A DNA stretch of 19,742 nucleotides from a virus (lineage: Duplodnaviria > Heunggongvirae > Uroviricota > Caudoviricetes). Each line of letters begins with the position of its first letter. Positions within the stretch are counted from its first letter, which is position 1. Location: IMG/VR virus record IMGVR_UViG_2681813004_000004, one strand, 5' to 3'. Made by a program: the position numbers and the translations under genes. Below are positions 1-764 of the stretch, in pieces. Under the pieces are notes generated by a model. It was not told the DNA's origin. It worked only from the letters and a program-made list of their open reading frames with translations, and did not search any database.

Positions 1-2
1 GT

Positions 3-110
3 CTGACACTGGGACTGAATGCGCTGACGCTGACGGATGTTACAAAAAATGCAGCGTATGGCGTTGAGATAGAAAGTCTGGTGCTGGAGATAAATGCACC
101 GGCAGCATAA
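3..110 (+). CDS. 3' end of an upstream CDS that enters the window (C-terminus ...LVLEINAPAA); product not recognised
   Basis: Frame is open from the window edge and ends in tandem stops TAA TAA (108-113); no start codon in window. Confidence 0.4.
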   Translation: MTLGLNALTLTDVTKNAAYGVEIESLVLEINAPAA

Positions 111-111
111 T

Positions 112-153
112 AAAAAAAGAGCCAGCGACTGACCTGAAAGAAGACGCTGGCTA
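112..153 (-). terminator. A-run plus GC hairpin (agccagcg / cgctggct, about 17-nt loop); would read as hairpin followed by U-run on the minus strand
   Basis: Inverted repeat 120-127 / 145-152 with A7 at 112-118. Loop is long for an intrinsic terminator, so function is uncertain. Confidence 0.25.
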
Positions 154-259
154 AAAGGCCTTATATGTTTGTAGAGACTTATTTTTCACAGACAGCAATG
201 ATGCCTGTCAATATATTATCAATATGCGGATTGTTTCAGTTACAGATGCTTTATTAAGG

Positions 260-302
260 AAAAAAACAGCCAGCACTGACTTTCGGTGGAGAGGTGCTGG
301 CT
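260..302 (-). terminator. Second copy of the A-run plus hairpin module (agccagcac / gtgctggct)
   Basis: Inverted repeat 268-276 / 294-302 preceded by A7 at 260-266; same architecture as 112-153 with compensatory stem changes. Confidence 0.25.
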
Positions 303-557
303 CAGAAGGATAGTTGGATTTCACATGATACTTATGCCTGGCGGTATATTTTCTGACAGACAGTGACGGGTGTTGTCAAGATATTGTGTCATTTATAACC
401 TGAATCAGGGGAGGCCGGAATGTTATCTGGCATTTTTAGCAGAGCCTGAATGCCATAATCACGGCTCCCGGAGTTGGCCGTCAGTGGGTGACACTGGTGG
501 TTTTTTTGTTTTTCTTTACTTTCATTTTCTGTCGGCGGTGACGGAGACATACATCAG

Positions 558-764
558 ATGGAAAAAATCACAACGGGTGTGTCATACACCACGTCAGCGG
601 TGGGGACGGGATACTGGTTACTGCAGCTGCTGGACAAAGTCTCTCCGTCCCAGTGGGTGGCAATCGGTGTGCTGGGGAGTCTGCTGTTTGGCCTGCTGAC
701 GTATCTGACTAACCTTTATTTCAAGATTAAAGAAGATAAGCGTAAGGTGGCGCGGGGAGAGTAG
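558..764 (+). CDS. S: Class II holin (pinholin), phage 21 S-like, 68 aa
   Basis: Protein [26 protein letters not shown]...[22 protein letters not shown] closely resembles the S21 pinholin as I recall it (two TMDs, charged C-tail); GGAG upstream of ATG; lies upstream of a SAR endolysin. Confidence 0.88.

Follow-up and report, generated by a model that had tools for sequence, protein, structure and literature searches.

Two tandem small-RNA genes, the upstream one PasA, very probably lie against the late operon between the esterase and holin genes of a lambdoid prophage

The interval between the sialate esterase and holin genes of the prophage studied here very probably holds two tandem paralogous small-RNA genes that are read from the minus strand, against the late operon, and the upstream one of which is PasA. 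The window (the whole 19,742-nt stretch of DNA that was analysed) had earlier been interpreted from its letters alone, and this sequence-only reading had pointed to two diverged copies of a hairpin module in the interval. Module 2 (260-344, minus strand) is identified as PasA by its sequence identity together with the transcript, strand and ends that have been published for this RNA. Module 1 (112-176, minus strand), an unnamed paralogue of PasA and PasC, is the Hfq-bound RNA EcOnc51/52 of EHEC and a diverged tandem copy of PasA. The feature as a whole is the already published PasA locus with its EcOnc51/52 neighbour, and is essentially known. The diverged tandem duplication at the pasA locus seems to be unreported and is, together with a recombinational link to PasC, the small residue of novelty.

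Both modules lie within a 447-bp intergenic region. This region is bordered upstream by the 3' end of a gene for a SASA-family sialate O-acetylesterase of the NanS-p type (1-110, plus strand, with the stop codon TAA at 108-110), as annotated in RefSeq under matches of 100% identity, and this end aligns with the end of the esterase CDS in EPEC E2348/69. This settles what the sequence-only reading had asked of the upstream gene, namely whether it is Q-like: it encodes a SASA-family sialate esterase and is not Q. Downstream of the intergenic region is the gene for a class II holin S of the phage 21 type (558-764, plus strand; Pfam PF04971, E = 1.9e-32), and 3' of the holin gene follow those for a SAR-type lysozyme and Rz/Rz1 and then long plus-strand ORFs, which are consistent with lambda-like head and tail genes. 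As the lysis genes occur together with these long lambda-like ORFs, the window is the late region of a lambdoid prophage.

The elements from which the modules were first recognised are all present. An A7 run (112-118 and 260-266) precedes each hairpin, which is formed by agccagcg (120-127) and cgctggct (145-152) in module 1 and by agccagcac (268-276) and gtgctggct (294-302) in module 2. The pattern AGCCAG-N12-32-CTGGCT occurs in the 19.7 kb only at 120-152 and 268-302, where 0.01 occurrences were expected. Folding, which had been proposed as a check, gave hairpin z-scores of -6.5 and -2.8 on the minus strand, with none of 200 shuffles folding as well, and of -5.2 and -3.3 on the plus strand. 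The strands differ in what follows the hairpins: on the plus strand a U-run follows neither, whereas on the minus strand U7 follows both, the A7 run of each module being the U7 tail of a minus-strand terminator. That the hairpins read as terminators on the minus strand agrees with the curated record of phage 434, in which they are annotated as such, and with published transcripts that end there. The proposal that a single unit is present here in two diverged copies is likewise upheld. A repeat or mobile element was also considered and rejected, as the window has no further copy of the stem motif, which in viral contigs anchored on the esterase end lies directly after the esterase stop.

Each hairpin had been said to be followed about 50 bp later by a related segment. 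Such segments exist at 183-217 and 349-385; the spacing holds for the second, at 47 nt, and fails for the first, at 30 nt. What had been missed is that these segments are promoter-like blocks of minus-strand genes, each with a perfect TTGACA at -35, and the feature is therefore two small RNA genes rather than isolated terminators. In the block of module 1 (182-211, minus strand), the -35 TTGACA (211->206) is followed by an 18-nt spacer ending in TGT (190->188) and by the -10-like hexamer GAAAAA (187->182), which gives a predicted start near 175. The PasA block (350-379, minus strand) has TTGACA at 379->374, an 18-nt spacer ending in TGT (358->356) and CAGAAA (355->350) as its -10-like hexamer. 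Its predicted start, near 343, is beside the published PasA 5' end at 344, and the distance of this end from the -10-like hexamer, 6-7 nt, is compatible with initiation at the TTGACA block. A search for TTGACA-N10-CTGTCTGT that tolerated up to two mismatches gave just two matches in the window, 188-211 and 356-379; each is exact and on the minus strand (0.12 expected). Read on the minus strand, each module thus has the layout of an Hfq-type small RNA gene, with a promoter-like block, a short variable body, a GC-rich hairpin and U7, and the predicted folds are of the form typical of small RNAs.

Conservation of the blocks is uneven along their length. When the minus strands of modules 1 and 2 were aligned, 11/13 positions were identical in the -35 block, 2/10 in the 10 nt after it and 8/8 in CTGTCTGT; the A-rich hexamer that lies 18 nt past the -35 element with TGT before it (GAAAAA in module 1, CAGAAA in module 2) matched at 4/6 positions. 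Module 2 has 15 extra nt directly 3' of the hexamer, the body is poorly conserved and the terminator is conserved. Across PasA, PasC and S106-type variants the PasA block is nearly invariant, while the transcribed 5' part varies. Both -10-like hexamers are weak, with 3/6 consensus matches, and neither small-RNA promoter was called by a sigma-70 consensus scan of the window, as the scan required T at position 6 of the -10 element and these hexamers end in A. Northern data suggest that the PasA 5' end results from cleavage of a longer transcript (Zhu et al. 2026, bioRxiv 10.64898/2026.05.13.724894), so the TTGACA block may not be the promoter of PasA, or not the only one.

PasA was described in EPEC E2348/69 as an Hfq-dependent base-pairing RNA on the basis of northern blots, a delta-hfq strain and RIL-seq (Pearl Mizrahi et al. 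2021, PMC8550237). Table S6 of that study places it between the esterase E2348C_0688 and the holin E2348C_0689 with directionality '> < >', gives its major form as 85 nt on the minus strand (743499->743415) and a minor form as 236 nt, ending at 743264, and lists GCCAGCACTGACTTTCGGTGGAGAG as its northern probe. The probe matches window 269-293 at 25/25 positions. In the alignment of the E2348/69 locus (NC_011601), window position x corresponds to 743155 + x, which puts 743499-743415 at window 344-260 and the end of the minor form near 109. Module 2 also lies where PasA should, between the sialate esterase and class II holin genes and antisense to both. Its terminator hairpin (302->268) has a 9-bp stem, AGCCAGCAC/GUGCUGGCU, followed by U7 (266->260), and the published seed GCCAGCACCU is found at 301->292, within the 5' arm of the terminator. 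PasA of E2348/69 and module 2 hence agree in position, strand, terminator, seed, promoter block and probe sequence.

The PasA allele of the window differs from that of E2348/69 by about 12 substitutions in the 5' ~40 nt, the 3' ~45 nt being identical, and module 2 as a whole is 92% identical to the E2348/69 PasA module. In the sample of IMG/VR viral contigs these two alleles are nearly equal in number (24 and 22 copies). As two near-equally common alleles match the description of PasA and PasA-2 in the survey by Zhu et al. 2026, the window allele is probably the variant called PasA-2 there, the sequence of which is given only in figures. The full PasA fold was no better than those of shuffled sequences (z = -0.5), with structure confined to the terminator. 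The possibility that PasA is the 3'-UTR product of a minus-strand ORF at 389-550 (53 aa) was rejected, as T-run length variants in homologues shift its frame.

Module 1 is delimited by its fold, by Hfq-CRAC peaks and by a RIL-seq end. Its predicted RNA of ~65 nt consists of an unstructured 24-nt 5' part, UUUU, the hairpin (152->120) with its 8-bp stem AGCCAGCG/CGCUGGCU, and U7 (118->112). Tree et al. 2014 (PMC4104026) reported two Hfq peaks in EHEC Sakai, EcOnc52 in prophage Sp4 (1181998-1182075, minus strand) and EcOnc51 in Sp12 (2237479-2237555), both flagged in their table with a predicted Rho-independent terminator, and both were later cited as PasA homologues (Table S6, PMC8550237). Mapping the EcOnc peaks directly onto the current Sakai record misplaces them. 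Between NC_002695.2 and the coordinates of Tree et al. 2014 there is a shift of about +137 nt at 1.27, 1.94 and 2.19 Mb and none at 1.18 Mb. The zero shift at 1.18 Mb was checked with the EcOnc08/21 probe and with EcOnc05/STnc100. The +137 shift was measured at 1.27 and 1.94 Mb with AsxR and AgvB, located via Rfam, and at 2.19 Mb, where EcOnc04 falls inside the STnc100 homologue only with this shift, and was extrapolated to 2.237 Mb; the EcOnc22 probe, tried as a further calibrator, had no match in the fetched region. On the minus strand of the window, EcOnc52 covers 100-177 and EcOnc51, after the +137 shift, ~103-179, which makes them the same element. Taken at face value, the coordinates of EcOnc51 would place it on the PasA terminator (window 240-316), an assignment ruled out by the shift of about +137 beyond ~1.27 Mb.

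The Sakai prophages are identical to the window over 1-416 (Sp12) and 1-233 (Sp4), so that EcOnc51/52 have the sequence of module 1, and they likewise run against the late operon, on the minus strand. The two peaks are discrete, are 77 and 78 nt long and hardly differ in signal (AUC), as is expected when reads map to two identical copies. Their 5' edge (177-179) adjoins the predicted module 1 start near 175, a CRAC peak marking an Hfq site and not transcript ends. In EPEC, an entry named 'pasA.E2348C_0688.IGR', in which the pasA-esterase interval is lumped with PasA, takes part on the minus strand in five interactions, always as the second RNA (PMC8550237), and the RIL-seq fragment 743267-743294 corresponds to window 112-139, the 3' half of hairpin 1. 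Terminator 1 is used in vivo, whether or not module 1 is an independent gene. EcOnc51/52 have been reported as Hfq-peak coordinates only and later as 'PasA homologues', and never as a separate gene beside PasA.

Module 1 also occurs in altered surroundings. In Sp4 (NC_002695.2 1181700-1182700), an IS629 copy has inserted at the equivalent of window 234, 23 nt upstream of the -35 element of module 1; PasA and the holin-proximal region are gone and module 1 is intact. About 60 plasmids carry an esterase fragment and module 1 without module 2. In NZ_CP051000.1 (22487-22748) and other plasmids of IncF type, an IS3-truncated 3' fragment of the esterase gene is accompanied by a module 1 that is ~92% identical to that of the window, and the RNA body of the plasmid copy has 4 substitutions in 24 nt.

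We propose that each gene would begin with a promoter-like block, made up of TTGACA, 18 nt of spacer with TGT at its end and a weak, A-rich -10 element; a short 5' body that evolves fast would come next, then a U-rich stretch and last a conserved Rho-independent terminator, the PasA seed overlapping the 5' arm of its own terminator. Module 1 would fire from its own promoter, the exact elements of which are predictions for both genes, and its terminator would also catch read-through from PasA, giving the 236-nt minor form. Lying directly 3' of the esterase stop, the two terminators would prevent antisense small-RNA transcription from entering the esterase gene. That module 1 is independently transcribed is the better-supported part of a real choice, and we lean towards it without great confidence. 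The opposing account, which we regard as a serious but unlikely one, holds that only PasA is a gene, and that module 1 is a decaying duplicate that acts as a fail-safe terminator and whose RNAs are read-through products or fragments. The RNA that ends at terminator 1 is indeed listed as a 'minor' 236-nt form of PasA (PMC8550237), and the -10-like hexamer of module 1 is weak. Moreover, as module 1 is identical in Sp4 and Sp12, CRAC reads map to both and are assignable to neither copy, and for this reason the Sp4 peak is no proof of expression without an upstream PasA. What speaks for a gene of its own is that the peaks are discrete, ~77 nt long and begin at the predicted start, that Sp4 and the ~60 plasmids retain module 1 in the absence of module 2, and that its promoter-like block is selectively conserved, both against the paralogue and in the plasmid copy that lacks PasA. 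In that copy 0/43 positions of the block are changed, against ~9% elsewhere (flanks 7-17%; ~92% identity).

That the main function is in cis is improbable, although it is compatible with two small-RNA genes and does not exclude them. The minus-strand RNAs would be perfect antisense partners of the esterase 3' UTR and the late transcript, and this together with convergent transcription would tune the expression of esterase or holin in place of an action on distant targets. The small-RNA genes do converge on the esterase gene, a plus-strand transcript that reaches 476-507 would be fully complementary to both RNAs, and the esterase 3' region is among the RIL-seq partners of PasA (PMC8550237). The site concerned is ctggtgctgga in the esterase 3' end (78-88, plus strand), in which GGUGCUGG is complementary to the PasA seed CCAGCACC; the RIL-seq target motifs of PasA in EPEC include this site (rows E2348C_0688 and E2348C_1246, PMC8550237). 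However, the 41 RIL-seq interactions of PasA are mostly with unlinked core and virulence genes (PMC8550237), and no data tie PasA to lysis timing. Positions 80-87 of the esterase 3' end are an 8-nt copy, GGTGCTGG, of the plus-strand 3' arm of the PasA terminator (293-300), and it is through this copy that the PasA seed is complementary to the mRNA of the neighbouring esterase.

By far the least probable is plus-strand control of the late genes, whether through a late promoter or an antitermination region, as the sequence-only reading had also entertained, through a qut-like site or through processing of the late mRNA upstream of S: the hairpins are necessarily inside the late transcript, upstream of S, and a plus-strand fragment of the intergenic region appears in one RIL-seq chimera (PMC8550237), but neither hairpin has a plus-strand U-run, the conserved TTGACA is on the minus strand only, the probe polarity and the RIL-seq and CRAC strands are all minus, Q lies >3 kb upstream, beyond the esterase gene, in the related phages 434 and H-19B, as does in 434 the terminator annotated just 3' of Q, and morons and the 1851-bp esterase gene separate the Q region from the modules.

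The plus strand does carry one terminator in the interval. The further hairpin with a T-run that had been noted before S is present, with arms at 476-486 and 492-502, and is an ordinary plus-strand intrinsic terminator (476-507) with an 11-pair stem, the loop GGUGA and T7 at 501-507. It lies 50 nt upstream of the holin start and downstream of the esterase moron, was called by the terminator scan and is annotated in phage 434. It is kept in all homologous regions, where the only variants are pair-preserving (G-C to G.U twice in the window, U.G to C-G elsewhere). Most likely it would stop transcription from the upstream morons before the holin when this transcription is non-antiterminated, that is, without Q modification. 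The two G-C to G.U changes of the window allele, at 498 and 501 relative to the common allele, are found in 3 of ~120 copies, and the predicted stem of this allele is weaker (-13.2 kcal/mol). A second, weak terminator-like hairpin, GCCGGAATGTTATCTGGC, followed by ATTTTT, is found at 414-436 on the plus strand; positions 380-475, which separate the PasA promoter block from the main terminator and include this hairpin, are highly conserved.

Pairing in the minus-strand terminators was followed in 120 viral loci that were fetched and anchored on the esterase stop. Module 1 with module 2 was the architecture of 64 copies, a single PasC-type module that of 22 and a single PasA-like module with the stem AGCCAGUAC/GUACUGGCU that of 11, a few copies being other or truncated. 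Across 18 distinct sequences the 9-bp stem is 97.5% paired, with double changes at three pairs. The stems covary as had been suggested: compensatory changes include G-C against A-U at pair 8 and, in related loci, C-G against U-A at pair 7. None of 500 shuffles reached the covariation score, pairing falls to 20-49% in slid registers, and RNAalifold recovers the same terminator helix; applied to the 5' bodies, RNAalifold gave no consensus structure and nothing convincing. As the covariation stems from few independent events among closely related sequences, it confirms a selected terminator stem and nothing more elaborate.

PasC, from prophage PP5 of E2348/69, has the same 8-bp stem as module 1 and likewise lies directly after the esterase stop. 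Its locus has a single module, in which a promoter block and 5' body of the module 2 type are combined with a stem of the module 1 type. The body and spacer of PasC are unrelated to those of module 1 and its loop differs, and one module 1 variant has the PasC loop. A comparison over the length of module 1 and PasC shows agreement only in the stem and the U and A runs beside it: the PasC probe agrees with window 145-156 over its first 12 nt, after which the sequences diverge, and BLAST of module 1 against PasC loci gave no match. We consider it an evenly balanced matter whether the pasA locus is a diverged tandem duplication in which module 1 is a third, independent member of the family and from which PasC arose by deletion between the hairpins. 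From a locus with both modules, a crossover deletion within the GCTGGCT arm that they share would leave one of the PasC type, with the module 2 body joined to the module 1-type terminator. If this is true, module 1 has a 5' targeting region of its own within the PasA/PasC family. Zhu et al. 2026 (bioRxiv 10.64898/2026.05.13.724894) found pasA copies never closer than 22 kb to each other and no tandem duplicates. The diverged neighbour evidently fell under their BLAST coverage filter, the 85-nt PasA query missing this copy. In a few prophages, as seen in two viral loci, an unrelated A-run and GC hairpin, CGACGGGGAGGTGTGCGGCCTCCCCG, come directly after the esterase stop. A different minus-strand terminator thus takes this position there, a hint that the post-esterase slot may also be used by other antisense RNAs.

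The anti-sRNAs AgvB and AsxR (Rfam RF02702 and RF02703) resemble the RNAs of the window: they too are short and Hfq-bound, come from the moron region of lambdoid prophages, and combine a conserved terminator at the 3' end with a 5' part that varies. However, they show no sequence or model match to the window RNAs and occupy a different site, beside STnc100 upstream of the esterase or downstream of stx2B. To our knowledge, no sponge activity is known for PasA, unlike for AgvB and AsxR. In Sakai prophages, STnc100/PasD-like RNAs lie upstream of esterase homologues, and AgvB and AsxR, encoded on the other strand, directly adjoin them; these loci are upstream of the esterase or of stx2B. Small-RNA genes therefore lie to either side of the esterase gene, with STnc100, AgvB and AsxR upstream and the PasA locus downstream. 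OmrA/OmrB and PrrF1/PrrF2 (Zhu et al. 2026) are likewise adjacent paralogous small RNAs that share their ends and have diverged in the middle. Unlike these pairs, the copies in the window are much more diverged and are located on a phage, and the independence of the second copy is putative.

Of 5426 complete E. coli genomes, about 12% have these RNAs, often in several copies: module 1 occurs in 677 and module 2 in 679. Nothing is annotated in RefSeq under matches to either module, as no Rfam family matches them: a search with all 4227 Rfam families gave no match at the gathering score in the whole window, and at E <= 10 only two noise matches (E > 3) in 1-1500. PasA is absent from Rfam 15. This absence from Rfam and RefSeq is the reason that these RNAs keep being rediscovered by readers of sequence, and the practical value of the present finding is one of annotation, of RNAs that are common in E. 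coli yet absent from Rfam. As a separate paralogue, module 1 would be one more member of the small-RNA repertoire of EHEC and EPEC prophages and would allow the relation between PasA and PasC to be explained simply, by duplication and deletion. The understanding of phage late regulation is unchanged by the finding at the PasA locus. Beyond the intergenic region, the window has a 687-bp insert (765-1451) between the genes for holin S and the endolysin, which are adjacent in phage 434. The insert contains a 104-aa ORF on the minus strand (1020-1334) for which Pfam gave no match. It has a match in 631 of the 5426 complete E. coli genomes and is present at >=99% identity in 623 chromosome or plasmid records, where it is annotated only as 'hypothetical protein'.
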